NCBI GenBank assembly: GCA_958009085.1
Contig: OY253670.1
Location: 186,001-250,000, forward strand
Origin: Protoeuglena noctilucae
Lineage: Eukaryota
Direction: 5' to 3'
Length of the DNA: 64,000 nt
Shown: piece after piece, positions 1 through 63,495 of the stretch
Position numbering within the stretch: position 1 is the first letter of the stretch
How the letters are laid out: each line of letters starts with the position of its first letter
Position numbers and translations under genes: made by a program
Notes under the pieces: model-generated
Seen by the model: only the letters and a program-made list of their open reading frames with translations
What the model was told of the DNA's origin: nothing
Databases searched by the model: none

Positions 1-541
1 CGGCTGTCGCTGGTGAGCTGCTGGTAGATGGCGTCACGTTGCGCCTCGGAGAGAAGCTTCGAGTCGTTTAACTCATCGACTTGCACGTCCTCGGGGAGGA
101 TGCACGCCGCAGCCACGACGGGACCCGCCAGCGGACCACGCCCCGCCTCGTCCACGCCAGCGATCAACTTGTACCCGTCTGCCTCAAGCTTCCGCTCCAT
201 CTCCCTGGCCTTCCCCGCGCTGCTCGGGCCTGTTGACGCTCCCCGGCGCTGAGCTGGCTTGGGCTTGGGCTTGGGCGAGGAAACCGGCGATGCTTTCGCA
301 GCCTGCGAGCGCGCAGGCCCGGTTTTAAGCGCGGTTGTTGCAACGCCATGACGTCCTGCCCCTGGCCTGCGCTCGCCTGGCGCGACGTGGCCCGCGGGCG
401 GAGCACTCGCAAAGGCGCTCTCTCGCTCATCGCAGGCTCGGCTGCGCGCGACCGGCCCTTCGCCATCGACGCCACGCAGACCCTCCAGGCCCTGCGTGCC
501 TCACGCAGCAAAGGCCCAGCGAAATCCACACGACATGGCAA
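1..541 (-). CDS. rnhB: Ribonuclease HII, bacterial/organellar type; 3' end runs off the window
   Basis: Minus strand reads [36 protein letters not shown]...[10 protein letters not shown] (GVDEAGRG and DSKxL motifs). It joins an Arg/Ala-rich N-terminal exon through a phase-0 GC-AG intron at 303-376. The exact start is uncertain. Confidence 0.9.
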
Positions 542-927
542 GAACGATCACTTGCTTGCGCAGCGATCTCACCGCCGCGAGGATCGAGATCAGGTATGGA
601 CGTGCTCGGCGGGCAGACTGGCGGAGACGCGCCAGTGCAGCTGACCAGTGCGACGGCAGCGATGCGTGAAGGGGCCCGCGAAAGCACATGCGACATTTAA
701 TCGTGTCGGGGAGCATCCTCGGGGTGGGAGCTGGCGTCCTGGGTTTGGTTAGCGGGGGATCACTTCTTGCCGTTGCTGGGGAGCAGACTGCGCGCGCAGC
801 AGGGGTCGCGGCGATGGGCGCAGACGAGAATTGAGCTTTATCGGCATCAACAACGTATCCGACATCGTAGGGCGTTCAAGAACGGACTGCGCGACCTGAA
901 AGAGGCCCGTGCACGCTCATCGCCACG

Positions 928-3900
928 ATGGTGCCGGCGGCCGCCCCCAGGCCGGCTCGCGTCGATACGTACGACGCCGCCGACCCGTTGGAAGACGTAG
1001 AGGACGAACGGCTCCTCGGAGATGCCATGGGCGGTGAGGTTGCGAAAGAGGGCGTGCATGCAGTGGCGCCTCTGAGCAAACAGCGACCCCTGCGCCTCAG
1101 CCGCCGCGTCTGCAGACGGGCGCGCGCGTGACTTCGCGTCCCTGGATGGCAAGAAGTTTGCGCCGATTCCCGCCGACGCCAAGGGCCTGCCTTCGGTGCC
1201 GGAGCTCCCCGTGCTATCGACCGAAGACGAGGACAAGCTCTTTGCCAAGATATCCTGGCGGATCCTCCCTGTGCACTTCACGCTCGCCATGTGCTGCTTC
1301 ATCGACCGCACCAACCTGAGCTACGGCGCGCTGCAGCTCAACGAGGACCTCGGCTTTGGCCCAGAGGTCTACGGGCTGGGTGCTGGCATCTTCTTCATCT
1401 CATACACCGGTGCGCTACTACCGGTGGCTACGAGGGCGTGCGTGATCCACTGCTGTGAGCCACGTGCACGCACGGCCCCTCGCCTCTCTCTCCCTGCAGC
1501 CTTTCAAATCCCGTCCGACATGGTCATCGGCCGTGTCGGTGCCCCGCTGTGGCTGGCGCTCATCCTGTTTGTCTGGGGGGGGCTGGCTGCATGCATGGCC
1601 GGCATCCGGAGCCAGTCGGGCTTTTTCGTGCTGCGGCTCTTTCTCGGGTGAGCGCAGGGCCGTGAGCAAACCCAGCATGTCAGGGCAGGCGCAAGCACCA
1701 CACTGAGCATTGCCCTTTGCGCACCGCCACGCAGGGCCGCGGAGGCGGGGACGTTCCCGGGCATCTGGCACCACCTGGCGATGTTCTACTCTCCACGCAC
1801 GGTCGGCGAGGCCTACACGCGCGTCGCGACGGTCACGGCCTTCTCCTCGGTCGTTGGCGGCCCCTTAGCGGCCCTGCTGATGCAGCTGGACGGCGCCTGG
1901 GGCCTGCGGTGAGTGCCCTGCCTCTTGCAAGGAAGGGGTTGTGCGGCAGGGGGCGCAGCAAGGCGCTTCGCTCTGCCCATTCTGGCTAGCACCTAGGACA
2001 AGCGCATTTGATGCCTCTGCTACGCCAGAGCTCTCTTGTCTCCCAGGGGCTGGCAGTGGCTCTTCATGTTAGAGGGATCCCTGACGGCGCTAGCGTCCCT
2101 GGTGGTCCTCTTTGGGCTTCCCAAGAGCCCCGACGACACACCGTGGCTGACGGTGGACGAGAAGCGACACATCGCGGGCGTCGCAGGTGAGAGTTGGATG
2201 TAAACCTGGGCTTGGTGGCCGTGGGCCGTCCACGGCTAAGGATTGGCACTGGAGCCACCCCTGTGTGCGCGCGGGTCGCGGGTGTGTCCTCACGCAGCGG
2301 CCGAGTGAGGTGGGGGCCAGGCAGTGACAGCGCGCCCGCCTCCTGGCACACCGTAGCTGCCTCCAAGGGTACCCACCGCGGCCCCAGTTGCGCTGACCTG
2401 GCCACGGCGGTCAAGTCCCCCGCTCCGTGGCACCTGGGTGCCATTTGGGGCCTGTCCGAGTGCTCCATGTACGGCTGCACGTTCTGGATCCCTCTCATCG
2501 TCCGGGGCATCCTGGGCATTGGCAAGCACGCCAGGCGAGTGGCGGTGGGCACTTGCCAGCGAATGCCACACGCAAGGGGCAGCACTGGCACCATGCGCCA
2601 TGTGCCATGCACGTGCGTCTCCCATCCACACTCACGCGAGACGCCTCGTCCTCCGCAGCGGAAGAAGCCAAGCGCATGACATCATCGCGGTATCTCTCGT
2701 GTCGGCAGTGCCCTTCACGACTGCGACCGTCGCCATGCTCTACGTGGCGCACCTGTCTGCCGTGCGCGACGAGCGCAAGTGGCACATGATTGTGTCGCTC
2801 ATGGCCGGGGCCCTGTTTCTGGGCGTCCTCACCCCACTGCTGGGGAAGCTCAGGCGAGCCGCGGGTGTTTCATGGCAGCAAGCGCGCTCCCTCGGTGTCG
2901 GTGTCGTGTCGTTGTTGCTGTGTTAGTTTAGCGCTTGGTTAGGAGTAAGGCGAGGATGGGATGGGCAGTCTGTTGCGGTGACTTCATGACTCCCGTATCC
3001 CTGCCTTCGCAGCTCGGTCGCCGGCATCGCATCGCTCTCTGTCGCCACTGGCAGCGTCTGGGCCATCCATGGCCCCATCATGTCGCTCCCCGCCATTCTG
3101 CTTCCGTCCTCAGCGAGGTGAGGCAGGGACCGCACTCTCCAGCCAGCGAGTAGCACTCCCATGGACTAATGGGCAGTGACAGTGACAGCGACACGCGTGG
3201 CTTGCCCCCACTTGCGCTACACGCACTGACCACCCTGCCCTCCGTGCTGCAGGGCGGCGGGTGTCGCCTTGATGAACTCCCTCGGAGCTACGGGTGGCTT
3301 CGTGGGCCCTTATCTGATCGGAGTCCTCGCTGATGATGGGCGGGGATACGGCCTGGCGATGTTTGTGCTGGGCGTGCTACTGGTGGCCTCTGCCGCCCTC
3401 ACCTGGCTGGTCAAGGAGGATGGCGGCGCGGCTGGGGACGGGGGGGGATACGCCAGGTGTGCGGGGGGCCAGGAGGCCGACACGACAGCTGTGATGTATG
3501 TGCCTTGTGGACGCAGGCAGAGCCTGGCTTGGACTCCACCTCGCACCATGCGCCTCATCTGGGCAGCTACCACGTTAGCTGCTCGTGGTGCCAACAATTG
3601 CGACGTTCCCGCACTTCCCCCCCCGCAGCGTGGCCACGGCGGAGGGTGCGTCGTTTGAGTCTCACGGGCGCACCCGCCGCGACTCGGAGCTGGCCAACCG
3701 CGCCAGCCCCAGCGGTGGCAGCTCCCCCCTTGCGGCCAACTGGAGCTCGGGCATCGAGCGCCACTTGCTCAGGAGCTACTCGGGGACGAGGGGCGTGCGC
3801 GGGGGGAGGGCTGCCGGGGGAGAGGGGGCGTTGGAGGGTGGGTCGGGGGATGGAGTGGAGACGTGGGGTACAACGTGGGGAGGGGACGATGGGGGGGGTG

Positions 3901-4218: not shown

Positions 4219-5208
4219 TCAACCCAACAACTCGAAGTCGTCCAGCTTGTCGTTGAAACGCTGGACCTTCCTGCGGATCTTCGAAGTATCCACCCACGTG
4301 ACAAAGTCCTCCATGGATCGCGTGACGTGGTATGCCGGGTCTGCAGCACATACAGGCAAGGCACGGAGCACCTCAGCAGGGTAGGCAGCAGAGGGCTTGC
4401 AGGGTCCTACCCTGTGCATGCACCTGATTACTGGCCCAGGCTGTGGCCCTCACCCGTGATTGTCTCGGGCCCCACCCGCACGTGGCCCTGCTCGACAAAG
4501 GTGCACGCCTCCTTCATCGTCTCCGCCATCTTAAGCCGCACCATCACCACCGCCAAGCGGCGCCTGCAAAGGGGGGAAGGGTGTGAGCGTCAAGCAAGCT
4601 CAAGCATCGAGTAGGCGAGGCCGCGCGCGTCGCTAGGTGCACATAGAGGTAGAGATATAGATAGCAAATAACTCAATAGCTTCCGCACCTGCAGAAAGAC
4701 GCGGTGCTGAGCTTCTCCGTCTGCGCCAAGCTCTTCTTGCTCGGCAGGACGCCCATGTTGTACAGCTTCTCAAGCAACTGGTCGGTAATCTGAATCCGCG
4801 TCTCGTCCTTTGCGTCGAGCTTCCTGCACGAGCGAGAGCGGGGCGGTGCTCGGCGGGGGCGCCACGACGAGGAGTCTGCGCAAAGCAAGGGGGCCCCGCG
4901 GCGCGCGCCTGAGCACGTTGGTGAGCTTGGTGATCATCCCCACGATTTTGTTGTACTTCTTGTAATCGTCCCGGTCCTGGATGTGGTACCGCCGCATCAC
5001 CTGCGGCCGCGGGAGGTCGGGCGGCTCTCGCACGGCCGCCAGGCCGTCCCGCGGTCGAGGACGGGGCGGGGCCCCTCAGAGTGGGTCGTGCTGCTTATTT
5101 AGATGGCGTGCGTCTTACCTGTAGCTCCCGCAAGTTGTGTTCTCGGTTCCATTGCAGAAAGTCGACCTTTTTCAGGAGCTTGTGCTCGTGGTACTTGAGT
5201 TTCCTCAT
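4219..5208 (-). CDS. IMP3: U3 snoRNP protein IMP3 (S4 domain), 5 exons
   Basis: MRKLKYHEHKLLKKVDFLQWK...VMRRYHIQDRDDYKKYNK...STASFCRRRLAVVMVRLKMAE...EQGHVRVGP...TRSMEDFVTWVDTSKIRRKV. Confidence 0.97.
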
Positions 5209-5609
5209 GGCTGGAGGAAAGGGCCCCCAGACGGCCCAGTCACGCGGATTTCGCCGCCAATATCACCAGGGTGGACTGGACAGGCGCAGGCGGGGGCAGC
5301 TGCGCAACAACGCTTCTCCTGAAGGGCTTAGGAAGCGGCTGCGTTCGCGTGAGCAATCTCCAGACCCGATGCCGGATGAACCGCACGAGACGTGATGGAC
5401 TGTCACGCATGCGCGCCACGACGCGCTGCTCCTGCTCCCCGGCGCTGCCCTGGGCTGAGTCGCTGCGCCAGATGAGAAATGTAGGGACGCGTTTGGAAGA
5501 ACTAATGCAAGCGAGGCCGAATCCTAGGCCGGGAGTTCCTCTGCGCGCGGCCCGTAGACGCGCGGAACGGAAAGGGGGCGCAGTCCCCGCAGCTCCGGCG
5601 CACGTCGTC

Positions 5610-11000: not shown

Positions 11001-11805
11001 AGGAAGCTCACACCCGACAATCCACGCAGTCGCAGACATGCTGCGGGCATCCCACACGTGGGTGTGAGGGTCGAAGCGACGGTGGAGGGCTAGTACAGCT
11101 GGGCAGCCAACGCTACTCGCCTGCCACGGGGCTGATCTGCAGGCATCCCTCGACCTTAGCGGGGCACAGCGTTTGATTGATCTCGCTCGACACGGCTCGC
11201 AGCGTTGTAAAGTCAATGGGCTCCCGGGACGCAATCGCCAGGCTCCGGGCCACGTCCCCAGGGAGAGACCCCTCCGTGTCTCCCTCAGCGTCGCCCCCAC
11301 CCGCGCCATCGACATCCAGATCTCCGATCAGCGCAAGCGCCGCACCGTATGGTTCCTGAGGCCCTGGCTGCGGAGGCGGGGCTAGTATGCCTGTCGAGAC
11401 GCAGCCACAGGCATTGGAAAAGCCCAAGCACGCTCGCAGGCCCAGGCCAGTCACCTTGGATTGCCGTAAAACACGCAGTGCATCTTTCTTGACTCCGCGC
11501 GCGATCAAGCCCGAGGCGCGGTCGCTTGGCGCGGCGCTACGCACTGGATATCCTGCGTGCACGGAAAAAGCCCCAGGCGCTTGACGATCCCCCCGCTCAG
11601 CTCAGCGCATGGTCATAGGCTGTGCGTGATGCCGCCGGCGTCGCTCTCTGAGTGGCGCACCTCGTACGCCTGCCCGGCCCGTTAGCAAAGTTCGCGAAGC
11701 AAAGCTCGTTCGCCATTGCGCAGCCGCGGCGGAGCTCCTCGTCGCTGCTTGGTATGACGTCGAGGGGGAGAAGCCAGGGATATCGAGCCCCCTCGCCGCT
11801 GCCAT
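8047..11805 (-). CDS. rqcH: Bacterial-type RqcH/Rqc2 (NFACT/FbpA family) with N-terminal transit-like extension, about 11 exons
   Basis: IDFTTLRAV, PFDRVLRLSF, HhH-like AFCGMSPRVAREV, GELLAANIW, LELDPSL...WFKKARKARR, and NFACT-R VGRNNRQNDEL...DVWMHARHVPGAHVVL...VRKPKGAPPGMVT. The start is inferred. Confidence 0.88.
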
Positions 11806-17591: not shown

Positions 17592-17850
17592 GTCGAACGC
17601 AGGTCACCAACAATATTCACTGCAGGCCAGGCGGACCTCGAATCATCGCGAACTTGAAGTTTGGAACACGTTGCGCCGCCAGAGCAGTTCGTGCTCGCTC
17701 AGAAAGGCCTGTCGCACGAAGATTTGATAAAGACCAGAGTACTCATACCTTGAAATTCCACCTGCGAAGCTCGACCTTCCGCACTATTGCCTGCCCATCG
17801 TCCTATCACGCCCGGAGCCCTCGCGGCGCGGATACGTCCGTCGCTCTCAG

Positions 17851-19503
17851 CATGACGGCTGCTACCTCCTCCGGCTTCAGCCTCGGGTGCGACGTTATGT
17901 ACATCTGATCTCTGGTCATCACAGCTGGCCGCTTGAGCTCACACCGAGCTAACTGCGCCGATGCACGCAGAGGGGTGCAATTCGCGAACGCCAGCCAAGC
18001 CCAGAAAGTCCTTCTGACCATCCCCGATGCCATGATACAGCGTGTGTCCGGGGCGGAGCGTCACGTGCTCCACACGGGCCCCGTCGAGCTCTGCGAGGTC
18101 GCCGGGCCGGGCACGAACGGCGACCGCATCCGCGTCCAGAGCCCGAACGGCCTGGTCTCGTTCCCGGTGCATCCCGACACGCCTGCCCTCAAGGCAGCGG
18201 ACCTCGTCTACTCCTTCACCCCCGAGACGTCCTTCGACGACCCCGGCAACGCGAGGGGCGCCATCTTCGTCCTCGCGCTCTCGCAGACAACGAGCCGCGA
18301 CCTCGTCAAGGCCCTCGAGCTCGTCCTCGTCCAGTGCAGCGCCTTGGGAGCCGTAGCCGGCGTGGCGCTCCTCCTGTCCGACGCAGAGGTCGCAGAGGCC
18401 ACGTCCCGGCCAGGCATCCAGGTGAGCTTTGAGCTAACCCTAGCTGAGCTGTACGGCTGCGGCTCAGCTCGCCTCATCTCGCCCCCGCGTCCCCCCTCCA
18501 GGTGCCCCTGTCCTTCCGCCTCGTCAATGCTATCAGCTCCTTCTCCGACCGCCTGTCATCGGGGCTGGTGCAAGCTGGGGCCAAGGGCGCCGAGCTGCTG
18601 CGCCGCGCCTCGGAGCGGTACGCGGAGAGGGCCACGCCCAGCGAGAGACCCGCGCAGGCGAGTGGCGGCGATGGCTCATCCAGTAGGTGGGCTCATGGTG
18701 GGGTGTTCTTCGGCAACGGCTCATTCCTTTCATGCCAAAGTAGCCAGAGCTTTGGCCACATCGTGTTGCGCAGGTGCCGGAGGGCATTCGGGGAGCAGCT
18801 GCCACGATCAAGGCGGGGGCGCAAGTCGGGGTGGCCTTCACGGCAGCGGCGGGGGCTGCGGTGGCGGGGGCGGCGCGGGAGCTCGGCATGGTGGCGGCGA
18901 CGAAGATCAAGGAGTCGGAGATCACGCAGCGGCATTTACAGAACGAGCGGCTGCGGGGGGCCATCCGCGTGGGTGGCGCGACGCTGGCAGGGGTCGCAGA
19001 CGTCTACGCGGCGCTCGCCGAGGCCACGAGGCTCGTGCTCAGTGGCGCTGCCGACGCCGTATCGCAGGCGAGATGCGAGGGGTGCCGCCCCACCTGTTGC
19101 GCTGCACTGGGCTCCCGAGTCGGGTGGTTGATGGGAAGCTTCGTGGCTGCCAACGCAGGGTGTGACGCACAGGTACGGTCCAGCTGCTGGGACTGTCACT
19201 CGCGATGCGCTCGACTCGGCCCAGTCGCTGGCGACCATCGGGCGCAACGTCCGGGTCATTGCGGTGCGAGGCGTGGCCAAGCACGCTGCGGCGGGGATCG
19301 CCGCGGAGATCGCAGACGTACCCATCCAGCCGGGCACGTCCAACTCCAACGGGACCCCTCCGGCCGCGCTGCCGCTGCCATCGGGTCCGACGACTGCTTC
19401 GCCCGAGGGCACTTCGTCCCTGCCACGGGTGGAGGAGGAGCCTCGCCGGGAGGAGGAGCTTCAGGAGTCGGCCCCGCCCTTGCAAGAGCCGAAGGGAAAG
19501 TAG
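17851..19503 (+). CDS. Senescence/spartin-associated domain protein
   Basis: VLLTIPDA...SFPVHPDTPALK...YSF N-terminal module. C-terminal GLVQAGAKGAELLRRAS...VADVYAALAEATRLVL...VTHRYGPAAGTVTRDAL (spartin-C HRYG motif). Confidence 0.82.
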
Positions 19504-19777: not shown

Positions 19778-22700
19778 ATGGTTGAGCCGAAGATGAAAGG
19801 GGAGCTGGGTGACATCCGCACCCAGCTGCAGAACATCATGCGCGCGGGCAACAAGCCCGAGGTGCAGGGGAAGCGGCGCGAGGTGTTTCGCCGCATGATC
19901 AACTACATGAGGTGCGAAGCGCTCGAGGGGTACCGCAGCGAGCTTCGAAACGGGCGCTCGCGTCTGCGGGCGAGCCGAGAAGGGAGCGCGGCCCCGAGCA
20001 ATGCCCCGACCGCTTCCGGCCCCCGCAGCATGGGCATGGACATGTCGCCGCTGTTCATGGATTGCGTAAAGCATGCCGCGAGCACGAACGACCTGGTCAT
20101 CCGCAAGATGATGTACCTCTACCTCAGCAACTACGCCAAGAGGTGCGCGCGCAATGCCGCTCTTTCCGGACCCGAATCGCCCTTCTGCAGCTTGCTTGGG
20201 AACTATACTTCCGCATTCTGTTACCCGCTGGGCCGAATGCCCCGTTCCTCGCCCGCCATCGCCGCAGCAACCCGGAGCTGGCCCTGCTCACCATCAACAT
20301 CCTCCTCAAGGACTGCAACAACCCCGATCCGACCGTCCGGTCGCTCGCCCTGCGCTCTCTCACCAACCTCCGCGTCGCCAACCTTGCTCAGTACCTCGCC
20401 GTGCCCCTCCGGCAGGGCCTGCAGGACCAGTGAGTCGCGGGGGCGCTGGCCGCGCTGCGCCTCGTCTTGGCTCGCCCGTGGTTCTTTGCCGCGTTCTTTA
20501 CATCGTATAACATCCTCTGGGCTACTCGCGAGCGGCTGAGACCGTGCGTATGCGTGCAGGAGCCCGTTTGTGCGACGCACCGCCGTGCTGGGCGTGCTGA
20601 AGCTCGCGCGCCTGCGCCGGGAGGCCGTGCAGGACTACGGGCTGCTCGAGACGGTCAAGACCCTCCTGACGACGGATCCGGACGCGCAGGTCATCTCCAA
20701 CTGCCTGCTGGTGCTGCAGAGCATCCCCGGGTGTGCCCCCAAGCCCAACAAGTCGCTCGTCTACGCGCTTCTCAACCGCATTCGCGACTTCAGCGAGTGG
20801 TCCCAATGCCTCGCCCTCGATTTCGTCGCGCGGTGAGGCGGCCCAGGCCGTCCAGCGTCCCTCCTGTCGCAGACAGCAGCGGCTTCCTCGGCCGCTCATC
20901 ATCCCCTCCGCTCGTCTTTGATTTGCTCAGGTACACGCCCGAGTCCGAGAAGGAGGTCTTCGACATCCTCAACGCCCTGGAGGACCGCATGCAGCACGCC
21001 AACTCGGCCGTGGTCATGGCCGCCGCCAAGATCTTCCTCCTCCTCACGCTCCCCATGGTCTCGACGCACCAGGAGGTCCTCGAGCGAGTCAAGGCCCCGC
21101 TCCTCACGCATGCCACCTCCTCGACCCCGGAGGTGCGGACCAGCCGCGGTCACGCGTGCCCGATTGCCACTCAAACAGCATGCGCAACCCCTCACGCACA
21201 GCCGCCGTTCGCCGTGGCATGACTGCGTCCCGGGCCTGCGTCACTGCGCTTCGTGCTTCGCCCCTCTCGCAGACGGCCTACGCTGTGCTCTCCCACCTGC
21301 GCCTCCTGGCCCACCGTGCCCCGGTGCTCTTCTGCGGATCCTACAAGAGCTTCTTCTGCCGCTACAACGACCCCTCCTACGTCAAGTCCGTCAAGCTCGA
21401 CATCCTCTGCGCCATCGCCGACTCGTCCAACGCCTTCGACATCGTCACCGAAATCTGCGAGTACGTCGCGGACGTGAACGTCGGTGAGGGCCGGGGCGCA
21501 AGGGAACGGGGCTTAAGGTGTCTGCGCGTGGAGCCGTGCGTGACGCACGCAGCGTCTCGTTGCGGCGCTCGGATGGTCGGGTGTGGTCGCCCGCAACTGC
21601 GCTGAGCGAGAGCGCATAGGTTTGCTTGCCTGACGTGTACGCCTGTCGCCGCCCCCCATCTTCCCAGAGCTGTCCAAGGAGGGAGTGCGCGCAGTGGGCT
21701 TCATCGCCCAGTCGGTGCCAGACACCTCGGGCCTCGTGGAGCGCCTCCTCTCTTTCCTCGACATGGGAAGGCAGCACGTGGTGGCTGAGGTCATCAAGCA
21801 GCTCCCGGACATCGTCAGGCGAGCGCGGGCTCTTGCGGGGGCCGCAGCATGTGTGGGCTTGGGCCATGGGCATGTCATGTGTGACGGGCGACATCGGGCA
21901 CAGCGCCTGCAAAGGGCGAACCGCCTGCCAACTGCTTTGCCCTCTGTCCCAGGCGTTACCCGGAGTCGGTGGACCTGGTCGTCAACACGGCAGTCACCGT
22001 CGACCTCGCCCAGGTGTCGGACCCGGACGCACGGGCCGCCTTCATTTGGCTCCTGGGCACGCACGGCCAGGCACTGCGCAACACGCCGTACGTCCTCGAG
22101 GTGGCCGTCGAGCAGTTCGCATGTGAGCAGCGGGCCGTCTAATGGGGCGTACCTGCGGGGGCGCAGGACATGACATGTGCTGTTGCGTCTCATGACGCAC
22201 TGAGCGACTGCGTGGTTGCAAAGGCGGGGTGTATGACGTGGGCCGTGTTGAGATGTAATGACCCGTGCTCTGTCCACCCTGCAGCGGAGAGCATCTCTGG
22301 AAAGCTTGCGCTGCTCACGTCCTGCGCGCGCGTCTTCTTCCGCCGGCCCCACGAGATGAAGCCCACTTTGGGGGCCGCGCTGGCTGCGGGTGCCAGTGAC
22401 CCGAGCCGAGTTGTGGCGGAGAGGGCGGTCATGTACCACCGCCTGCTGCGGCAGGGAGTGGACGAGGCGGAGAAGGCGAGGGATGGAGGGATGCTGGGAG
22501 CATGGCTGTGGCATGGCTGCGTTGAGATTGCGAGGATACAGACACCCTTGCATCTGCTCCGCTGGACCAGAAGGGCTTCTCAGCCCTGGCGCACTTGGGT
22601 TGTAATGATTTGCTTCCCTGTCATTAATGTCATCGCCAGTCATCCTCCCTCTCGCTCGCAGATCATCGCTGCGGCGGTGCCCCAGGGATCCCACTTCCTG

Positions 22701-40883: not shown

Positions 40884-42071
40884 ATGCAGCTTTGGCGAAA
40901 GCTCCCGGTTACAATCAAGTAAGCGTTGCGCTGGTTGCCGCCGCATTTGGCTGGCTTATCTCGTGACTAAGCACGCTCCCCGCGCTCACCTCACAGGGCC
41001 GCGCCATCTCGCGCAGTCAGCGTCAGCGCCGCCGAAAGCGCTCCCCACACCATGGTCACATTGGTGAGGACGTCGCGACTTTCGGCTTTGGGGCAAAAGG
41101 GCTGGCTTCGTCGCAGTAGCTTACCAAGTGCCCAGCCACGCCTTACTGAGCTGCCCAGCCGCGCCTTATAGAGCTGCCACGCCGCGCCTGACCGCAGCGT
41201 CATGTCCCGGAGAAGAGCCTCCACCTCAGCAAGCCGACCTCGTGGCTGACCTCACGGTTCCACTTCTCGTTCGCGGAGTACTTCGACCCAAGCAACGCGG
41301 AGTTCGGCGCCCTCCGCGTGATGAATGACGACCTGGTCAAGGGGAAGTCAGGTTTCCCGCCTCATCCCCACCGGGACTACGAAATCTTCAGCTACGTGGT
41401 CGACGGGAAGCTCTCGCACCAGGACAGCATGGGCAACAAGGAGGCCCTCGGGCGGGGATCGGTGCAGTACATGTCGGCCGGGCGTGGCGTGGTGCACAGC
41501 GAGATGAATGAGGAGCGGGAGACGTGCCGCTTCATCCAGGCAAGCAAGCAGGCCGCGCCTGAGATCGCTAGCGTGGGTTTCGCGCTATCTGCCATCGCGC
41601 AACGTGTGCTTGCTACCCCGTTGACTGCAGACGTGGATCAAGCCGGACCGCAGCGGGCACGACCCGCAGTACGGATCCCAGACCTTCGACGAGTCGGAGC
41701 GCAAGAACAAGCTTTTGCAGATTCTCGGTGGCACGGGCGCGGCGCCCCAGTGGGGCCAGGCCTCCAACAGCGGCATGGCGCGCCTGCACCAGGACGTCAA
41801 CGTCTTCGCGAGTGAGCTGGACGCGGACGCGGGCCTGTCGGTCAAGATGAGCGCCGACCGGCAGGCGTACCTGCTCTGCATCGAGGGGTCCCTCCGCGTG
41901 GCCACGTCCCGGGACGAGGTGCAGCTCAGCGAGCGGGACGCTGTGGAGATCGTGGGGAACAAGGCGGCCGAGCCGGTGGAAATCAAGGCCGGGGGCAGCG
42001 GGGCGCATCTGCTCATGGTCGAGATGAAGAAGACCGGGCACCAGCGGCGGGGTAGCGCGCGCGAGCTGTGA
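40884..42071 (+). CDS. Pirin-family cupin (YhhW-like) with short transit-like extension
   Basis: WLTSRFHFSFAEYFDP...FGALRVMNDDLV...GFPPHPHRDYEIFSYVVDGKLSHQDSMGN...VQYMSAGRGVVHSEMN...RFIQ|TWIKP. Confidence 0.93.
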
Positions 42072-46411: not shown

Positions 46412-46416
46412 TGTAA
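46412..46416 (+). terminator. Possible chlorophyte-type TGTAA polyadenylation signal of nucleolin
   Basis: TGTAA lies 175 nt after the stop. It is not seen consistently behind other genes, so support is weak. Confidence 0.3.
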
Positions 46417-49600: not shown

Positions 49601-52600
49601 GACCGCTCACCTCACTCTCTGCGTCCGAATCTGGGTCCCACTTGAGGAGGTGGTCGGCGGAGAGCTTGTTCTCTGCCACGCGTTGGCTGACCGACCGTCG
49701 CATGGTACGGGAGGTGGCCGCGGCCATGGAGCGGGCGAACTGCTGCTCCATCGTGGGCGGAGGAATCCTGCAAACGCGGACCGGGGCACGCAGGCATTGC
49801 TTCACGCATGGCTGCATGCACAGCGCAGCGGAAGGCGAGCCTGCGAAAGGCATGCTGGAGACTCCTACGCACCACGATCCCCGTCAAAGCCAGCCAGCCC
49901 GTGCGGTTGTCTGTACAACCACAAGCTGCTGACGAAGCGCGGCGATCTGCAGCGGCGTCGGCAGCCCATCACCTCCGCAGTAGGTTGGCGAGGTTGCCGG
50001 GATGGCTGCTGGTGACGGACGCCTGGGAGTCGGCGAGCTTGGCGATGCCGGAGATCTCGCTGAGGCTCGCGCGGTGCATGCCCGCCGCCACGCGGTGCTC
50101 GTTGACCACCCGCTGCATCCGCTTGGCGCGGCCCAGCATGTCCTCGGCCCTGCCCCTTGCCTCCTCCACCGCGGTCACTACGGAGCTGAGCTGGTGCTTG
50201 CGCCACGCCAGGATGGCGCGGCAGTGGTCGCGCATGCGCATCACGTCGCGTGGATGCACCAGCCTGCGGAGCGCGGGCGGGCGGGCGCGGGTGGGGCGGC
50301 ACGCATGTAGGGAAGGGAATGGTAGGGCGGCAACTCAGTCCCCGACCGGTGAAGAGCATCTGCTCTCACTTCTGGAGCACTTTTTGCTCGATCTGGAAGA
50401 CCGAGACGTCGGTCACCGCCACCACCGAGTGCGTGTGCGTGGCGCTCTGCCCCGCCACCGTGTCCTCCCCGCAGAAATCCTTGACGCCCAGCGTAGCCAC
50501 GGGCACCCGACGCGTCCGCTTCAGCTTCCCCGCCATGACGTCCTCTCTGCGAGTGCGCCACGGGAGCGAAAAGGACTCCACAAGCTGCAGCACCGTCACA
50601 GCACGTGCCTTCAGCAATGGCAGTCGCGCAGCTGTGTGCGCAGGGACCGCTGGGGTCACCTCAGCACGGTCGTCATGGACCTCCGTTCGTTCTTCAGGTC
50701 CGGCACGTCCTCGACAACGCAGCTCTCCACCATGCATGACCCCGTCTCGATCACATACACCGCATCGGCCGTCTGCCCCTCGTGGTACAGCGTCGACTTG
50801 GCTGGGAAGCGCAGGCGCTGGGCAGCAAATGCCAGAGCCCTGGGGACAGACACGAAGCCACGAGTTGGAGAAATGGACACAGGGGTGTCACAGCCTCAGC
50901 CACAGCGACACAGCCACGGCGGCCATTGCCAGACACGCTCCGCCCCATCGCGGCGTGTCACCTGAGGTCGGTGGAGTGGATGGTGCTCTGCACGATTGGA
51001 GCGGATGTCAAGAAACCGACCTTTTTCTTCAGCTCTCCGTCGAACCCCTCTGTCTGCGCGGGGCGTGCGAGCGGGAGCAGGGCGATGAGCAGCGCGCCCA
51101 GCGAGGTGCATGTGACGTGCTCGGGCTCCACGCGGCACTCAAGCTGCAGCTTCGTCGATCATCGATGCCGAATGCATTTCGCCATCTCATGGGCAGCGCA
51201 TCCCACTGCCCCCTCACCAGGATCGTGTGGTATTCGCTGCCGTCCAGGTACACCAGGTCCGACTCCTCGTTGGCCAAGACGGTGATCTTGTACTCGAAGT
51301 TCTCCAGAACCGACACTTCCCCGAAGAAATGCGACTCGAGATATTCCCTGCGAGACGAGGTGCGACATGAGTGCAGCGCCGCGTGCCACGGGCAAAAAAA
51401 CGCATTCCAAAGCGGGACATCAGTGGTGCGCTGCTTCGCGCTCTCAAATCCTGCCGCTTTGCGCTCCCGGTTTCTGCACCGTGACTCTGGTGCACGCTGC
51501 GAGTAGGTGGGCGCTGTACCCTCACCTCTCCCACAGGGACGGCCCGGTGCCCTGCGGGTCCTCCTTCATGACCCACTTGCGGTCGGGGGGCTTCCCGAGC
51601 TTCAGCTTGCTCGTCTGCGGGAAGCCAAGCACGTCTCGGTATCTCAGCATCCCATGCGCAGCGACGGGAGGCCGTGGGATGGGGGCGTCGCACACCACCG
51701 CAGCCCCTCGCCGCATAGCACCGACCACCATGGAAACCAGGCAACGCCAATCATCTCAGCATTGGGCAAATCGCTAGCTATAGGCCTCTCGCGACTCTCT
51801 CAGCCACTCCCTCACCAGGATTTCCACAAACTCCTCGAACTCCAGCTCCCCGCTCCCGTCGTCATCCACGCCCTCCAGCAGCTCCGCGATGTTCTCCTGC
51901 GACGCCAGAGGACAAGCAAGTGAGGGAGACATACTGCGATTTGCGCACGCAAGGAGCGCGAGGGCTGTAGAGGCGCCCAGAGCTGCGCCCAGGAGATGCA
52001 AGGACGCAACGCAGTCGCGCCCCTCGCCTCAGACAGCTGTATGCCCATCATTTCAAGGGCCGTCTGGAGCTCTTCCGCGTCGATGGCCCCGCTTCCGTCC
52101 GCGTCGATGGAGTTGAACAAATCGCGCATCTCCTGCTCCGACACTCCGCCCGCGCCCCCGGACGACCGCTCCTTCGCGCTGCCCTCCGCCTGCCGGTGCT
52201 GCTCATCCGACTTGTTCTTCAGCGGCGCGGGGTCCTCGGTCGTCACCGTCACCGACCCGCTGCGGGCCAGACGCGAGCCAGAGGTGGGCGCGACAGCCGG
52301 AGCAGCCCACCGCAGCGCCAGGCAGAGTGCTGCGAAGGCGGCAGACGCCCCGCCACGCGCGGAGTTTAGGCACCTCATGACGTAGAAGAACTGGCAGCCT
52401 TTGAGGATGACCGTCTCCCCCGCCCCGATGCGCTTGAGCTTGGCCACGTAACAGAGGTCCGTGTGCACCGCCTCGCCCTCTTGCGTGAACAGGGGCACCT
52501 CGGCCGTCTCCTCCCGGATGTGGCTGATGTCCAGGACGCTCCGGTTCTGCGCCTTGCGCTGCAGGGCCTTGCGAATGCGGCTGAGCTTGGAAATCCGCTC

Positions 52601-54530: not shown

Positions 54531-57500
54531 TCAATTCCACCTCACGCCTTTCTCCGTGCCCTTGTCCGCGCCATCTTCACGCATCGACACGCGGGGCTTG
54601 GCCGGGCCCGCCATGTCGGCAGGCGCCACCTTCCCGCTCTTCACCGGCACGGGGGCCTTGGACTCCTCGCCGTGTGCCTTCACCACAGTGCCGTCCATGT
54701 CGTCCTTCTGCGAGAAGGTGGGCAATGCGTTTGGAGTCCCGGACAATCAAGCGACAGCAAACGCGTTCGCTCGTCATCAGGTGGACATAGGCATGAGTCA
54801 AAGCTGGCCCGCATGCCCCGCACCTCGGGCTGCACGCGGTCCTTCTTGGCCTGGTAGAAGCTGTCGATCTCGGCCCAGGCCTTGAAGGTGCCCCCGAGGA
54901 CCGGGCGGAGTGCCATGCGCTTGAGCCACCCGAAGGCGCGGGCGATGGCGCTGGGCGGCCTCTGCGTGGACCGACACACGCGCTCTCGGTCAGTCGTCCC
55001 GCGCGTCGCCGCACGACCTCGCCGGCTGCTGCGACAAGCTGCTCATGGCACGAGGCAGCCAGTCGCAGCCGAGTGGCGTCACCTCGGGCACCGGCAGACC
55101 GTTGGCCTACCTCCACGCCTTGTATTGCAGGTAACTCTGGTACTCATGGCCCAACGCCAGCTTCTGGAAAAAGGTCGTGATCCGCGCCCACACCACCCCG
55201 TACCACGACGTGCGCTGTTCCTGCGGGGCAGGACAGGCGAGCAGGGCGGGACCGATGAGGAGACTCTCGGAACGGACGCGAGCGCATGATATGAAACACA
55301 CGGCAGTGACTGCACACGAGACACGCAGCAGTGACTACTGCAGGTCCTTGCCTCATGCTGCTGGAAACTGTCGTCCATGATGTTGATGCCCAGTTTTCCG
55401 GGCAGCAGTTGCAGCGCGGAGAGGGCCTGCATGGGCGGGCGTGGACGTCCCAGGTGAGACCAGTCACATGCAGGCTTGCCAGACACCCACGGCGCCTGCA
55501 CCGTCCCGGCGCAGCCCACAGCCCAGCACGCGTTCGCCCCTCACCATCTTCTCCGGCAGCCGGCTGAACATCTGGGCGACCCACTTGATCTCGTCCACGC
55601 CGGCGCGCGCCTCGGGCCGCAGGAAGGAGAACATCCACACTTGGAAGAGGAAGATGGGCGCCAGCAGGCACCCCTCGATGAGGATGGCCGTGTTCATCGC
55701 GTTTTGGGCATAATGTCTCAGGAGGTTACCGATCACGTGGGTGCCCCACTCGACGTCGTTGCGGCCCACGTTCCAGATGAACTGGAAGCGCCCGTTGGCG
55801 ATGTCCGCGGGGCTCTGTCCGGAGAAGATGAGGCCCTGGACCACGTAGTTGCGGACCGTCTGGTTGAGGCCGTTGGACGTCGCGGGGTAGAGCGGGTCGG
55901 TGGGGGCGTAGCAGGTTGAGGGGTCCTCGTGGAGGCACTTGGCCTGGAACAGGTCGCACTGGATTTCCTTGGTCAGGTAGGCGATGCTGCTGTGCAACCC
56001 CCCTGATGCGCCGCTCGAGATCGTGGTTGACGTGGCCGTCGCATTCCCATTCCCGAAGAGGAAGAGCGACCACTGGGCGGAGAGCGTGTTGGCGATGGTG
56101 TTGACCTGCATCATGCTCTCTGGCAGGGTGTACCCCAGCGGGCTGACCTCCTCGTTTGTGCTGATCATGATGCCGACCTCGTTCACCCAGAAGCGCAGCT
56201 CGATGCTCCAGGCCTGCACGCGGTAGGCGTCCTCGAAGGCCGCCACGGGGTCCACGGCGAACTGGAGCAGCGAGTGGGCCCACAGGTGCGTGCCGATGCA
56301 GATGCCTGTCACGACGGCGAGGGGGATGGCGATGATCACCTGCGGGGTGGGCCACAGAGGCGCAGTGGGCGGTCGGAGTACCGCGTTGCCGGCAGGCACG
56401 CCCTAATATGTACTTTGCCTTCCACCAGCCCGAGAGCCACGCCTCACCTTGAGCCGCCACTCGTCGTTCCGCAGCGGCTTGGGCGCTTCGGTGAAGCGCA
56501 TGGCCTTGTCGACGCCGCGGCCACTGGACTTCTCCAGGCGCCGGACGATGCGCTTTTCCTGCGAGGTGCGGGCACGAGCGAGACCCGATCATTGACCCGG
56601 TCGACGGTCGCAGCGGCGCGCATGTCGCTGATCGCAGCCGGCAAGCCTTGCCACCCCACACACCTCGTCGGTGAGCACGGCCGAGAGGTCGAGGTTGTGG
56701 ATGTCCTGGGCCGCGGTGCCCTCCTCGCCGCGGGGCTTCCCGGCCGCCAGGTGGAAGAGCACCGGGCGTGGGATGGTGAGGAAGACCGAGAAGAGCGCTG
56801 CCTTCTCGCGCAAGAGGGACCGCATAACGAGGAAGGTGAGGAGGGAGCAGATGGGCATGACGACCACGCTTTGCACGAGGCCGAGGACGAGCTGGTTGGT
56901 GATGAGGTTGTGGAGCCGGTTGACCACGCGCTGGTACGCCTGGGCGAGGATGGTCGACTGGACGCCCAGGAAGGACACCTGCGGGCCCTCGACCGCGAAC
57001 AGCCACCTGCGGCTCGTGTCGGCCGCGGTCGCCAGCTCCTCCTGCGACATGAACTCGATGCTCTCGGCGTAGCTGGCCAGCAGGCTCGTGATCCGCAGCA
57101 GGCCGCTGGTGTCCTCCCCCTCGATGGTCACGTTCCGGGGCCCGAGGCCGTCGCCGTGGTCCTGGTCCGTGATGACCGGGAAGGTCACGCCGTACCGCAG
57201 CAGGTCGTGCAGCATCGGGTCCTGGGTCCTGCCCGTGTACTCGATGCGGTACTGCGTGAAGAGCTGCTCCACCTCCGTGGACAGGTCCTGTTGCAGCTGG
57301 TCCACCGTGGTCTGCGTGGCCCACCAGCCGCCCTTGGCAGCGTTCTGGAGGCGCCGCGCCAGTGGGGGGATGTTGACCGTTGCGAGCAGCACCTCGCCCG
57401 CCACGGAGGCCGAGCTAATCTCCGTCTGGGTCGTTCGCACGAGGCTCGCCATGATGACGAAGAGGATAACGTGAAGCACGAGGCCGGCGCTGAGGATGCC

Positions 57501-60500
57501 CTGGACGCTCAGCACCAGCCGGCTCAGCTGCCGCATCGCCCGGGACTTCTTGAGCAGCTCGTAGATGGCCTTGAAGTACTTCGATCTCCTGAAGTGCGAG
57601 CGGGTCACCCCCTGGCTCGACGCCCCGTCCTCCTCCTCCTCCGTGTTCGTGTGCACCAGCGACTCGTCCCCGCTGTCGTCCGAGTCCTCGGACCCCGCCG
57701 TCGACTCCTCCGCCTCGTCGCGGCCCTCGTCCTTGCCCAGCACCACCGCCCTGCCCTTCGCGGGCTCCTCCGCCACCCGCGCGCCCTCGCGGATCTCCCC
57801 GCCCGACACAGTCCCGCCCATCCGCACCACGTTCTTCACCAGCGCGGCCGCCGCGCCGAACGTGACCCCCGATCGCTCGCGCTTGGGCGTCGTCGCGTTG
57901 GCTTCCGTGGAGGACGACCCCATTTCGCCGGAGTCGCGCTTGGCGCCGCCCTGCTTCCCTCCCAGGCGCACGCGCGACGGCCCCTTGCCGGCATCGCGGT
58001 CCAGGATGACCTGCGGACAGGCGAGCAAAGAGAGTCGGTGTCCCGTTCTCAGCATGTGATCTGTTGCCGCAAGGCCTGGGCTACTGCTTGGCGGGGCTTG
58101 CAGACATGAGCGCAGGCTGCAAGGCAAGCAACAGGACCAAAGCAGGCACGACAGGGCGCTGCAGCGCGCACAGCCGCCCCCGCCTCGCCTGCATGCGGTG
58201 CAGGGCCTCCGTGGCCGGCTCGCACGCCTCCTGCACGGCCCGCACGACCAGCGTGACGCGCTTCTTGCCCGCCGACACCGTGTCGCCCGACCCCAGGAGC
58301 GAGACGCGGAGGGTCGAGTCGTCCGCGTGGCGCAGGTGGAGCTCCGCGGAGGGCTTGCGGCCCTCGAGCACGTCATCGACCTGCCCCGGCGTGTCCTCCA
58401 CGAACAGGCTCGACAGCGCGGAGCGCACGAGCCGCGAGGCGGGGCGGCCCGACAGGACCTCCATGCGCGGGCTGGCGGTGAGGATGACGCCGGCGGGGGA
58501 CACCTGCATCTCGCCCTGGAGCCAGTTGGCGCTCCAGACGTCGAGCACGAACCCGTCCCGCACCGCCTCGACGTCCGCCTCGCCGCGGAGCACGCCCAGC
58601 TTGCGCAGAGAGGGCAGGTTGACGCGCGTGGCGGCCACGCGCTGCACGGCCAAGCGCGCGGGGACGAGGTCCTCCGTGGCGTTGTAGGGCCCGGGGGGGC
58701 AGCGGAAGGCGGTGCGGAAGGAGGCGATGCCCGAGGTGGCCCCGACGCGGCTCAGCTGCTCGAGGGCCCCGGCCATGACGTCGCCGACGGGGATGGACGA
58801 GTTGAACTTGCGCGCGGCCGTGACGGTGGCGGAGAGCACCTCGATGAAGTCGGCGACGTTGGCGCCGGCCAGGGTCTCGGCGTTGATGCCGAAGACGCCC
58901 CCGGCGACGCCCTCCTTGACGAAGCCCGTGCCATGGCCGACGGTGACGACGGCGCCCTGCCGGTCGACAAGGATGCGCAGGCAGATCTGCTGCTCCACCT
59001 GCCCCTCGATGCTGCGGAATCCCCAGGGGGCCAGGGCCGCGTTGGGGCGGGTCTTGCGGGCCAGGCAGACGTACATGGGCGCGGAGGTGGCCGCGTCGCG
59101 CTGCGTCGTCCACGACAGGACCACGGGGACCTGGGCGCCCTGGTTGCCACGCAGGATGACGATCTGGCCCATCTGGCAGGGCACGTGCATGGCCGCGCGG
59201 TCCGAGCTGACCACGGCGCGGGGGAGTCTGGTCTGGTGGAAGCGCCCGAAGCCGCGGGGCATCAGGTGGCTCACGTTGGCGCCGGCGTCGATGAGGCTGC
59301 CGGCGGGGTAGCCCAGCGCCGACTCCAGGGGCGAGTTGACGTAGAGGATGCGGCCGTCGCGGCTGCACACCAGGATGCCGCCCGGCTCCTCGTCCAGCGC
59401 CACCGTCATGGCCACGATCGCGTCGTCCCTCCTCCCGACCAGCGAGAAGGACGCCTTGGAGGCCAGGCCTGTCTTGAGGTATTTGTGCCGGATCACCGCC
59501 GCCATCCCCGACACCACCTCGGCCTGCGCGAGCTCCCCAGCCTTGTCGGCCTGCGCCGCGTTCCCGGACCTGTGGAGCAGCAGGCTCCCGTTCTTGAACA
59601 GCTCCTTCCCGTTGCCCGGGGCCGCCCTGTCGGCGTTCGTCTCCGGGGCAGCCTCGCGCGGCGGCTCCGGCGCCACCCTGTTGCCGACGTCGCTCATCCG
59701 CACGCGTCGCATCTTGGTGCTGAACGCGGGGCCGAGGCTCTCGGCAAGCGAGGTGCGCTCCTTCTGGCTCTCGCGGAGCGACGGCTGCACGACCGGGCCA
59801 TTGAGCGACAGGGAGTCCTGCGACCGCCGCAAGGGATTGCTCGTCAGGGACCTCAGGATCGCGCCTGGAGCGCCGCAATCGAGACGCGGGCCGCCGGCGC
59901 GGCTGCCGACCTCGCACCGCGCGGGGTCACGCACCTTGATGGCCGTGAGGCCTTGCTCCAGGTCGAGCCCGTCCAGCGCGAGGCTGTTGATGCTTTGCCC
60001 AAATACCTCCTTGGACTCCCACCCGAGGAGGTTGGTGAGACCCTCGGACACGCACAGCACGCTCCCGTCCAGCGTCATGTAGAGGATGCCCTGGGCAGGG
60101 TCGACGTCCGCGGGGCGGATCGAGGCCATGAACTGGTCCTGCCCGTCCTGGACCACGTGCACGACGCGGATCTTGATGGGGAACGCCGAGCCTGCAGGGG
60201 CAGAGCGCGGGGGACCGAGTGACGTTCGCAGCAGCGAGTGGTGCCAGGTTGATGCTCAGTGCTGCGCGGGCTTTGACTCAAGACACGACTAGCAGCAGTA
60301 ATACAGTCTCAGTTCTCTTGTGGAACCGGCACGTCCCGCTCACCGTCCTTGTGCAGCCCGATCTGCAGGCGCTCCGTACCGATGATCCGGGGCTGCCGGG
60401 TCTGCTTGAAGGCAGCGATGTAGCCGTTGTGGTGCTGGCTGAAGGGCTTGGGCATGAGCACTGCGACGGGCACGGGTGGCGAGGTTACGTCATGCTGGCG

Positions 60501-63495
60501 AGAGACACAGCCCTGTCGCTTGTGCTTCGCTCTGAGAGTCGAAACGGCAATGGTTGCGGCGCTGCTTGCGGTATCCGAGCTCACCCGACACGTTGAGCCC
60601 CACGAGCTCGCCCATCGAGTACCCGAAGAGCCTGTTGAGGTTGCGGTTGGTGAATTGGATGATGCCGGCGTCGTTGCAGACCACGAGCCCATCCTTGGTT
60701 CCCGATGCCACGTTGACGTCGCCACCCTCTGCGGCGAGCGGTGAAAAGAGCCCAGGTAAGCGAGCATGCGGGGCATACCACACCAGAGTCACTTCACACC
60801 GGGCACATGACACGGGGCGCAGCGTCAAGCGCGTGAGCTGCCCGGCTTACCTCCACCCACGAGGTTCCCCTGCTTGGTCTCGGCCTGCGCGTCCTCGAGG
60901 CTGTCGGCCTTGGCGAACATGCGGAGGGCCTTGCCGGGCGCGCCCTTGACGCCGGTCAGGAAGGTCGCGTAGAGCCGCAGGAGGCTCACGTTGTCGTGGT
61001 ACCGCTCCAGCATGATGCGGTAGAGCCGGTGTGCCTTGCTCTCGAGCGCCGACAGGGAGCGCAGGGTCCCGGACAGCTGCGTCAGGGTCACCGAGTCTGC
61101 GCGGAGGAAAGCACGAAGCCCGTCGCGGTTCCTTGATCTGTTCTTGTTGAGTCCATGCCCGCGATCCCAGACCTTTGAGATACGCGCCGGGGGTCTATGC
61201 CACAAGAGACTCACCCGAGCCGAGGAGCTCGCCCCAGAACTGGCGGATGGCCATCAAAGCGCTGGCCTGCGTCTTTTGCACAGCGCGGAGGTTGTTGTTG
61301 AACTCGACGAACGACACGAGATCCATCGCACCCTCCGCGTTGTTCGACGATCCGCTGCTCTGCGCCTGCTGCCTGCGACGTCAGGGAGACCGCGGCCACG
61401 TTTGCCAGCAGCGGCCAGCGACTCTGTCGCACGCTGGCCATCTGCGAGCCGCACCTGCTCCGGCAGAAGCACTGGAACTGCAGGTCCATGTTGATGGGCA
61501 CTTTCCGCACCGCCGCGAACTGCTCCGACGCGACCTGGGTGTTTTGAATCACCTCCCACAGGAAGTGGCCCATAAGCATCCGCAGGCGCGCCACCTGCGG
61601 CCGGGCGGGTGTCGGGTGCGTCACTTGTCATCGCCCTGCGTGTGCCAGGTAGCCCTCGCCGGAGTCAGGTACTGCTCACGTTCGGGAACTGGCGCATGCC
61701 CTCGCGAAGCACGACCAGCGCCGTGACCAGCCAGTCCTCGACGAGGTTGCCGTACTCGTCCGTGATGCGCATGCAGCGAGAGACGTGCTCCACCTCCGTG
61801 GCGCACGCGAAGCGGATCCGGGGCATGATCTCGGCCAGGCGCTCGGCCTCCGTCGTCATCCGGTTGTTCACGGCCTTGACCGTCTCCACTGCGGCAGAGC
61901 AACAGTCGCGGTAACGTCATCACGCAGGCGACATCGGCGTGGACACCCCGTTGAATGCCGCCGCAGTGCTTACCGGGACTGCGGTACCCACGCGCGCTGT
62001 CGAAGCCGCGCGAGGAGCTCAGGACGTGCCCGCTGCTGTTCTGCACCGGCAAGATGATGCCGGCCGCGTGAAGCTCATCGCGGATCCACCTGGCTTTTCG
62101 CTTGGACGGGAGCAGCCTGCAGAACAGGCAAGACGTTTACGGTCACTTGTGATTGACTGAATGTTGAGCCCGCACCACGCGTCCCTGGCGACAGCATGAA
62201 GCGGCCCTCGCCTCAGCCACATGATGCCGGCGCAGACGACGAACGCGGGTACGATGCCGTTGGCCATGATGCGCGTGATGGGCTTGGCATGGGGCGAGAG
62301 GTTCTGCTCGCTGCCGACGACGAACTCCAGCGCCACCAGCACCACAGAGATCCAGGCCAGGATCCCGTTGAGCCCCGCCTCGAGCACGTTCGTGTACGTG
62401 GGCAGGTACGGGGCGTAGAACATTACCCCAATGGCGTTGTAGAGGTACAGTGCGCAGAGCAGCACTGCCAGGGTCGAGCGGCTGTTGGTGCCCCCAATGA
62501 AGATGTCCAGGGCGTCCTGGACCGAGTGCACGATGAAGTGCCGGAACATGAAGTGCGTGAAGGACACTGCGAGGGAGCGCGGGGGCGTGGGCATGGAGGC
62601 TGTGAGGAGCATAGGCCGCGTTTAGGGAGAAGGTGTGCAGTCCCACGGCAAGAGGCCTCACCGCCCTCGACCCGCCGCGAGAAGGGATTCAGCTCCGCCT
62701 CGGCCACGGCGATGAGGGCGCCGAGCGTCACGGTGACGAGCGCCGCCGGGATGGACGCGATGAGCGTCGCGAGGTGCGGGAGGCGCTTGCAGGACTGGTC
62801 CTGGTAGTAGTAGAAGGCCCCATTTTTGTCGCACCGGATGCTCATCATGAACACGGCGAGGGCAGCGATGTACAGCGTCCTCACGAAGACGCTCACTGCG
62901 AGCATGCCACAGGCGCCGCGTCTGAGTCCCGGCGGTCGGCGCCTGGATTGCGAGGCCCAGCGCGTGGCCCGGCCGTCTCGCTCGGAGCCACTCACCGACG
63001 AGGCGCACGAACTTGATGGGCCAGACGAAAGGGAACGTGCCCGTCTTGAAGTTGTAGGCGACCCACAAACAGATGGTGATGGACAAAACAATGATGGAGA
63101 ATTGGGACCAGAAGATCGCGGAGAAGGCTTTGTATCCGACCGCTTGCAGCAGGTTGGTGACGTCGGTCCATTGGATGGCCACAGACCACCAGGAATTCTC
63201 GAAGTCCCAGCTGAAGTGGCTCGTGATGAGTATGACCAACAGCTGGGGGGAGAGGTGCACGGGCGGGGGTTCGGGTGGGGTTGCGTGCATGCTTCCACCC
63301 AGGGCGGCTTGCTGGGTGCGGCTCTCCATCTCCTCTTGCCTGTAGGAAGCCGATGATCATCCCCAGCACCCCCCACTTCCACGACCCCTCCTCGTGCTCC
63401 TTGGTGATGGTGAAGAGCACGCCAAAGACCGCATCCTTCAGCGAGCCCTGCTTCCGGAGCAGGAAGCTCTCCTGGGCCAGGTCGTCCCCCTCCAT
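54531..63495 (-). CDS. TmcB/TmcC-like multi-pass membrane protein with about 5 PAS domains
   Basis: AVFGVLFTITK, VAYNFKTGTFPFVWPIKFVR, ELNPFSRR, N-terminal TM bundle, TPR-like YRIMLERYHDNVSLLRLYATFL, PAS1 DGLVVCNDAGIIQFTN...LFGY...LVGLNV..LMPKPFSQHHNGY, further PAS units, and C-terminal TM pairs with FLTIPR / MFSRLP. Confidence 0.85.

Follow-up and report, generated by a model that had tools for sequence, protein, structure and literature searches.

In a 64-kb stretch of Protoeuglena noctilucae DNA (GenBank assembly GCA_958009085.1, contig OY253670.1, positions 186,001 to 250,000 of the forward strand; hereafter the window), roughly 13–20% of the introns begin with GC and end with AG. These GC-AG introns are very probably ordinary U2-type introns that carry a C at position +2, their high share arising from GC bias at strong donors. 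The window has a GC content of 66.2% and holds about 20 intron-rich eukaryotic genes, in which a gene finder placed 125 introns (20 gene models, about six introns per gene). An earlier note on this DNA, made from its letters alone, had listed at least 17 introns with GC donors, always preceded by an exonic AG, and had put their share at 10–15%. All 17 were found to read AG/GC...AG (the slash marks the cut), with the exonic AG, the GC start and the AG end in place. The bases after GC were GAG in 11 introns, AAG in four and GCG in two, giving the donors GCGAG, GCAAG and GCGCG, and the U12-type donor GCATCC (ATCC at +3 to +6) was found in none of the 17. Mammalian GC donors prefer GCAAGT; here, +3 was mostly G (GCGAG), as in the GTGAG donor consensus of this genome.

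The observation of frequent GC-donor introns was upheld: 11 of the 17 claimed introns were fixed by RNA (three introns) or by homology (eight introns), and none was refuted. The other six comprised two that were consistent with homology (41540–41630 and 51897–52027), three that were called by the gene finder alone and one candidate that it missed (303–376). By their GC and AG ends, the removal of 11 of them from RNA or from the coding sequence, their non-U12 donors and the match of their flanks, the claimed introns are of the U2 type; they are presumably recognised by the U1 small nuclear ribonucleoprotein and removed by the major spliceosome.

The RNA evidence came from three RNA runs that were aligned, together with one DNA run, on positions 11000–30999, a 20-kb region chosen as holding eight of the 17 claims. 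Thirteen of the 15 joints listed, out of 41, were supported by RNA, and once the alignment ambiguity was resolved they comprised nine GT-AG and four GC-AG joints. The acceptor was AG in all 13, and at each of the four GC joints GC-AG was the sole GT-AG or GC-AG placement within the alignment ambiguity. Three of these joints belong to claimed introns, in the RbcX-like gene and the alcohol-dehydrogenase-like gene, and the fourth is a GC donor that the earlier note had not listed (Table 1). The two donors 29529 and 29613 lie 84 nucleotides (nt) apart, in frame with each other, use a common acceptor and were seen in RNA contigs of different runs. Five claims of the region were absent from the 15 joints listed, which has no bearing either way; the other 26 joints and the stretches of the region that lacked RNA coverage were likewise counted neither for nor against.

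Homology fixed eight further introns. In the MFS-type transporter gene, both claimed introns were bridged by continuous protein matches, and 2535–2658 was the sole claimed intron for which no GT alternative keeps the frame. The model of this gene with both GT and GC donors scored 1343 against the protein P0009 and the GT-only model 846; the latter skipped exons, was shorter by 111 residues and had an alignment score 497 units lower. The bacterial-type MFS matches P0005–P0007 aligned too loosely for placing junctions, and a protein search with the transporter exon 3254–3454 returned P0004, an open reading frame (ORF) predicted on a genomic contig that is colinear with the window and hence uninformative on splicing. 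In IMP3 (4824–4908), profile position 51 fell on residue 29 of the 30 upstream and position 54 on residue 1 of the next exon, with one residue and a split codon between them. In the Senescence-domain gene, profile position 44 was the last residue upstream of 18658–18773 and position 55 matched the eleventh residue of the exon that follows, ten residues thus standing for ten positions; at 19068–19158, the profile was continuous with the claimed acceptor, and the gene finder had picked the wrong acceptor, 19224.

The remaining homology-fixed introns were placed with the help of a relative, a metagenome contig (L001) that is 73% GC, shows 74% identity over one adaptin exon and keeps the gene order of the window, namely NFACT, RbcX-like and adaptin. 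When any donor and any acceptor were allowed, the GC-AG placement of the NFACT intron 11041–11120 scored 110, equal to the top, and the best GT-AG placement 77. The two introns of the AP-4 type beta-adaptin gene were read against P0003, a plant beta-adaptin. At the second, 22476–22661, which is in frame and stop-free, nine P0003 residues match 27 nt, and both exons are contiguous in the relative, at 11340/11341. Furthermore, residues 282–654 of the spliced adaptin model aligned with the relative over 373 residues without a gap, across five junctions (three GT and both GC). Low-depth RNA contigs at 22245–23190 ran unspliced through 22476–22661, which could mean that the intron was retained or that the RNA libraries contained some DNA.

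Two more claimed introns agree with homology. For 41540–41630, in the pirin gene, the domain boundaries are consistent with a GC-AG intron and not decisive: the match to a solved structure stops eight residues short of the junction, the second pirin exon has no structure match, and weak GT alternatives at -16/+23 and +33 would still be possible. The intron 51897–52027, in a gene with EF-hand and cNMP-binding domains, is approximately supported, its residue count fitting EF-hand_7 within one or two positions.

Table 1. GC-AG introns and candidate GC-AG introns of the window (positions of the window; a slash marks the cut).
Intron	Strand	Gene or place	Standing	Evidence
2535..2658	+	MFS-type transporter	GC-AG intron	P0016 residues 325-328 then 330-333, continuous across the junction
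2854..3012	+	MFS-type transporter	GC-AG intron	P0009 451-454/456-459 and P0016 392-395/397-400, continuous across the junction
4824..4908	-	IMP3	GC-AG intron	Pfam Ribosomal_S4 (S4 N-terminal domain) continuous across the junction
11041..11120	-	NFACT	GC-AG intron	aligned to the uninterrupted orthologous ORF in L001
17377..17456	-	RbcX-like gene, 5' end	GC-AG intron	RNA joint 17376/17457, runs X1 and X3
18658..18773	+	Senescence-domain gene	GC-AG intron	Pfam profile continuous
19068..19158	+	Senescence-domain gene	GC-AG intron	profile position 139 upstream, 140 in the next exon with the claimed acceptor
21819..21952	+	AP-4 beta-type adaptin	GC-AG intron	P0003 residues 390-440 and 439-500 abut
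22476..22661	+	AP-4 beta-type adaptin	GC-AG intron, 186 nt, in frame, stop-free	P0003 residue 697 at 22475, 707 at 22689
28694..28915	+	alcohol-dehydrogenase-like gene	GC-AG intron	RNA joint, runs X1 and X3; tacag/GCGAGG..GCAG
29529..29746	+	alcohol-dehydrogenase-like gene	GC-AG intron	RNA joint, runs X1 and X3; cgcag/GCGCGC..GCAG
29613..29746	+	alcohol-dehydrogenase-like gene	alternative GC donor, not in the earlier note	RNA joint, runs X1 and X2; cccag/GCAGGG..GCAG
41540..41630	+	pirin	claimed GC-AG intron	Pirin domain ends on the last upstream residue; Pirin_C_2 downstream, in another frame
51897..52027	-	EF-hand and cNMP-binding gene	claimed GC-AG intron	gene finder; EF-hand_7 1-29 upstream, 42-65 in the next exon
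303..376	-	upstream of the RNase HII domain	candidate	cag/GCGAGC..AG; missed by the gene finder
39085..39169	-		candidate	gene finder, whether or not the donor matrix included exonic positions
62117..62211	-		candidate	gene finder only, both matrix settings
63243..63339	-		candidate	gene finder only, both matrix settings
32242..32319	+		further candidate, AG/GCGAG, not in the earlier note	gene finder only
32904..33108	+		further candidate, AG/GCGAG, not in the earlier note	gene finder only
55221..55351	-		further candidate, AG/GCAAG, not in the earlier note	gene finder only
58011..58188	-		further candidate, AG/GCGAG, not in the earlier note	gene finder only

The share of GC donors was estimated with a Viterbi gene finder written for the window. 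GT introns alone served to train its codon model and splice matrices. The GT-only model found 113 introns, and the model admitting both GT and GC found 125 (99 GT and 26 GC) with a gain of 264 bits; 13 of the 17 claims were recovered exactly. When each of the 14 other dinucleotides was put in place of GC, the gain was 4–116 bits, and many of these controls apparently stand in for real GC introns. Offered as a third dinucleotide beside GT and GC, the controls were used 0–10 times (CC 8, CG 10 and GG 8) for 0–24 bits, while the GC donors stayed at 25–28. GA donors, tried in this way, were rejected (four uses, +8.8 bits). After subtraction of the control level, about 16–18 of about 115 introns in the window are real GC-AG introns, i.e., about 14–15% with an outer range of 13–21%, and the 10–15% put forward from the letters alone was about right.

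The exonic AG was analyzed in the junctions that had been fixed regardless of motif (RNA, NFACT, adaptin and transporter). AG was present at -2/-1 in all nine verified GC donors and in 10 of the 26 verified GT donors (one-sided Fisher p = 0.0013). When the exonic positions of the donor matrix were disregarded, 38 GC donors were called, of which 18 had AG, and the control dinucleotides were used 9–12 times, with AG in 0–2 cases, so that GC donors without AG are at the level of noise. The assertion that the exonic AG is always present was borne out in every claimed and every verified GC donor, "always" itself being beyond proof. The further point, that the conserved proteins offer no frame-restoring GT alternative, was overstated, as a frame-keeping GT-AG alternative lies within 45 nt for 16 of the 17 introns. 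These alternatives have donor flank scores of at most 2.2 bits, against 4.3–7.9 bits for the claimed GC donors, and those that were tested are at odds with RNA or homology.

The reading of these introns as ordinary U2-type introns with C at +2 would work as follows. A donor with C at this position would form one base pair fewer with the U1 small nuclear RNA (snRNA) at its 5' end, and only donors that pair well elsewhere would bear this, namely those with (C)AG at the end of the exon and G/A-A-G at intron positions +3 to +5. This need for pairing elsewhere would explain why every verified GC donor has the exonic AG. GC-biased mutation or fixation would then, most likely, convert GT to GC at sites that are strong enough, a cause that has been put forward for other GC-rich algae. 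The removal of the introns from RNA or their absence in orthologues, the excess of GC over the control dinucleotides and the enrichment of AG were observed directly; we infer U1 pairing as the mechanism and base composition as the cause. The earlier interpretation had combined relaxed or modified recognition of the 5' splice site with compensation by exonic pairing. The second part stood (AG in 9/9 against 10/26 donors) and the first is not required. Exonic compensation is generally seen at U2-type GC-AG donors (PMC1557818) and does not set this genome apart.

Several points weigh against this reading. Independent support was obtained for 13 of the 17 claimed introns, the exceptions being 303–376, 39085–39169, 62117–62211 and 63243–63339. 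Exact recovery of the RNA joints by the gene finder was only 9 of 13, and, judging from the usage of the control dinucleotides, chance may account for about 8–10 of the 26 GC donors that it called. The plain motif AG/GC[GA]AG was counted 40 times against 32 expected (1.26x), which is weak by itself. Among the junctions fixed by RNA or homology, GC accounts for 8 of 34, a share biased upward because the aligned region was picked for the eight claims it holds and the genes were chosen too, and the joint counts rest on 15 of the 41 joints. The share was measured in one 64-kb window. An Rfam search of the window and of the related loci L001 and L002 returned no hit and hence no snRNA gene, so that a changed U1 is conceivable, and GC pressure as the cause would be carried over from other species.

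Three explanations compete with this reading. An enrichment local to the window or to its genes, with a genome-wide share well below 10%, is unlikely: it draws on the fact that only 64 kb were seen, but the independently supported GC-AG introns are spread over eight unrelated genes, from 2.5 to 52 kb and on both strands, the claimed introns called by the gene finder only extend to 63 kb, and the published cases with a high share are genome-wide.

An altered spliceosome that treats GC and GT about equally, through a U1 5' end that pairs with both U and C at +2 or through changes in U6 or U1C, would account for a GC share 15–20 times that of model organisms and for one gene alternating between two GC donors; even so, we consider it distinctly improbable. 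Such equivalence predicts no extra exonic pairing, yet AG was found in all of the verified GC donors and in fewer than half of the GT donors, and this excess indicates that GC donors are still weaker than GT donors here. In addition, GC donors are still a minority, although the window has 15548 GC sites against 6640 GT sites (GT taken as the AC count, both strands). Finally, it is very improbable that most GC-AG introns were called in error in GC-rich DNA, with a true share of about 1–2%, since the small excess of the motif, the frame-keeping GT alternatives and the use of control dinucleotides by the gene finder, which all speak for it, are outweighed at 11 introns, three by RNA (plus one alternative donor) and eight, to the residue, by homology, and by the losses of the GT-only transporter model.

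The reading of ordinary U2-type introns also agrees with what is known from other organisms. In five model species, GC-AG introns make up 0.37–0.87% of all introns, and the other positions of their 5' splice sites conform more closely to the consensus, which offsets the mismatch to U1 (PMC1557818). The introns of the window share with them the GC and AG ends, the U2-type donor and a flank match stronger than that of GT donors, and differ in their share, about 13–20% against 0.4–0.9% (PMC1557818). In Emiliania huxleyi, 56% of the donors at 241 curated junctions are GC, which was ascribed to a genome of 65% GC, and intron retention is common (PMC4028052). Like E. huxleyi, a GC-rich marine alga, P. 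noctilucae has transcript-verified GC-AG introns, AG acceptors and wrong GT-only models; E. huxleyi uses 56% GC and 4% GA donors (PMC4028052), whereas here GC is in the minority and no GA signal was seen. Dinoflagellates also use GC donors commonly, but GA as well (PMC5029490), for which the window again gave no signal. The same share as in the window is published for the pelagophytes Aureococcus anophagefferens and Pelagomonas calceolata, with about 14–17% predicted GC-AG introns ascribed to GC content (bioRxiv 10.1101/2024.10.30.620910). Both they and the organism of the window are GC-rich marine algae; the pelagophytes have 0.19–0.92 introns per gene (bioRxiv 10.1101/2024.10.30.620910) against about six in the window. 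No further algal lineage with such GC-AG shares was found in the haptophyte and green-alga literature on GC-AG introns, as covered with few subscription journals and no supplements. The window, taken by itself, fits the pattern of GC-rich algae, with a GC content above about 63%, a GC-AG share above 10% and AG acceptors. Both the phenomenon and its compensation are known already, and the organism appears to be a further case.

The relative also allowed intron density to be compared. Its NFACT gene (5198–7423) is a single ORF of 742 residues without introns, and that of the window (8047–11343) has about ten. Its adaptin gene (9307–12189) has at least two introns, one placed and a second inferred from overlapping matches, against ten in the window (19778–23831). 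One adaptin intron is common to both (20430–20559 in the window and 9837–9981 in the relative), with the same cca/GTGAGT donor. Intron density therefore differs very strongly between the organism of the window and this relative.

The introns placed by the gene finder alone and the gene models around them deserve some comment. The candidate 303–376 has negative coding scores on its flanks, and an in-frame Met stands just before the conserved RNase HII domain; it may be an intron of the 5' untranslated region or may not exist. At 39085–39169, reading through would meet a stop 31 nt into the intron, and the sole GT alternative scores -8.9 bits. No relatives of the exon 62214–62564, which flanks 62117–62211, were obtained by protein search. 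A predicted GC intron at 6699–7015 (ggg/GCAAGG) is doubtful, because the mitochondrial carrier Pfam match runs past the donor 6452 to about 6490; the carrier model at 6453–7015 is probably wrong.

The gene families of the window were named by Pfam on ORFs or exons. They comprise RNase HII, the MFS-type transporter, IMP3, a mitochondrial carrier, NFACT, an ankyrin-repeat region, a weak RbcX-like match, the Senescence-domain gene, the AP-4 type beta-adaptin, a DnaJ domain adjoining alcohol-dehydrogenase domains, emp24, pirin, EF-hand genes, an RRM protein and a large PAS / TmcB-TPR gene. Pfam gave nothing useful on the ORFs upstream of NFACT and of RNase HII, and a search of solved structures with the RbcX-like exon yielded no significant match (CrRbcX-IIa at E = 0.95). 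A word-based search of the protein collection, with few candidates, found no identical long proteins of the window. Of the words sampled from one 10-kb stretch, a fraction of about 0.4–0.5 was present in marine metatranscriptome runs and all were present in DNA runs of one organism.

Additional observations were made on transcripts and repeats. Single RNA contigs at 23385–24214 and 29415–30787 carry introns of opposite strands, for example the GT-AG introns 23585–23705 (+) and 24126–24214 (-), which suggests that convergent neighbours overlap at their 3' ends. At 30389–30519, the RNA donor was 30492 and the gene finder took 30519, 27 nt upstream and with the same printed donor context; the emp24 profile was better matched by the shorter exon, and the site may hold a 27-nt repeat or a second donor used alternatively. 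A TGTAA signal was absent at the single poly(A) site seen. Two long ankyrin-repeat ORFs on opposite strands occupy 12326–16109, where the contigs of the DNA run were about 10–35 times as deep as in the flanks, reaching a depth of about 8800 compared with about 245; this stretch looks like a high-copy repeat family. Introner-like repeated introns were rejected, the 125 predicted introns being dissimilar except for overlaps of opposite-strand predictions.

As the genome is intron-rich, its GC-AG introns could be numerous in absolute terms. It is conceivable, though rather unlikely, that in this lineage a GC-AG share of about 15% goes together with a very dense population of introns, possibly by large-scale lineage-specific intron gain or by a changed recognition of +2 by U1 or U6; if so, it would have tens of thousands of GC-AG introns and would offer a natural system for studying how the spliceosome adapts to GC pressure. 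In practice, predictors restricted to GT donors would get about one in seven introns wrong in this genome. With P. noctilucae, another GC-rich marine eukaryote joins the published list of high GC-AG shares, and its importance is practical more than conceptual. The finding also supports the view that base composition shifts the choice of splice sites as far as U1 pairing permits.

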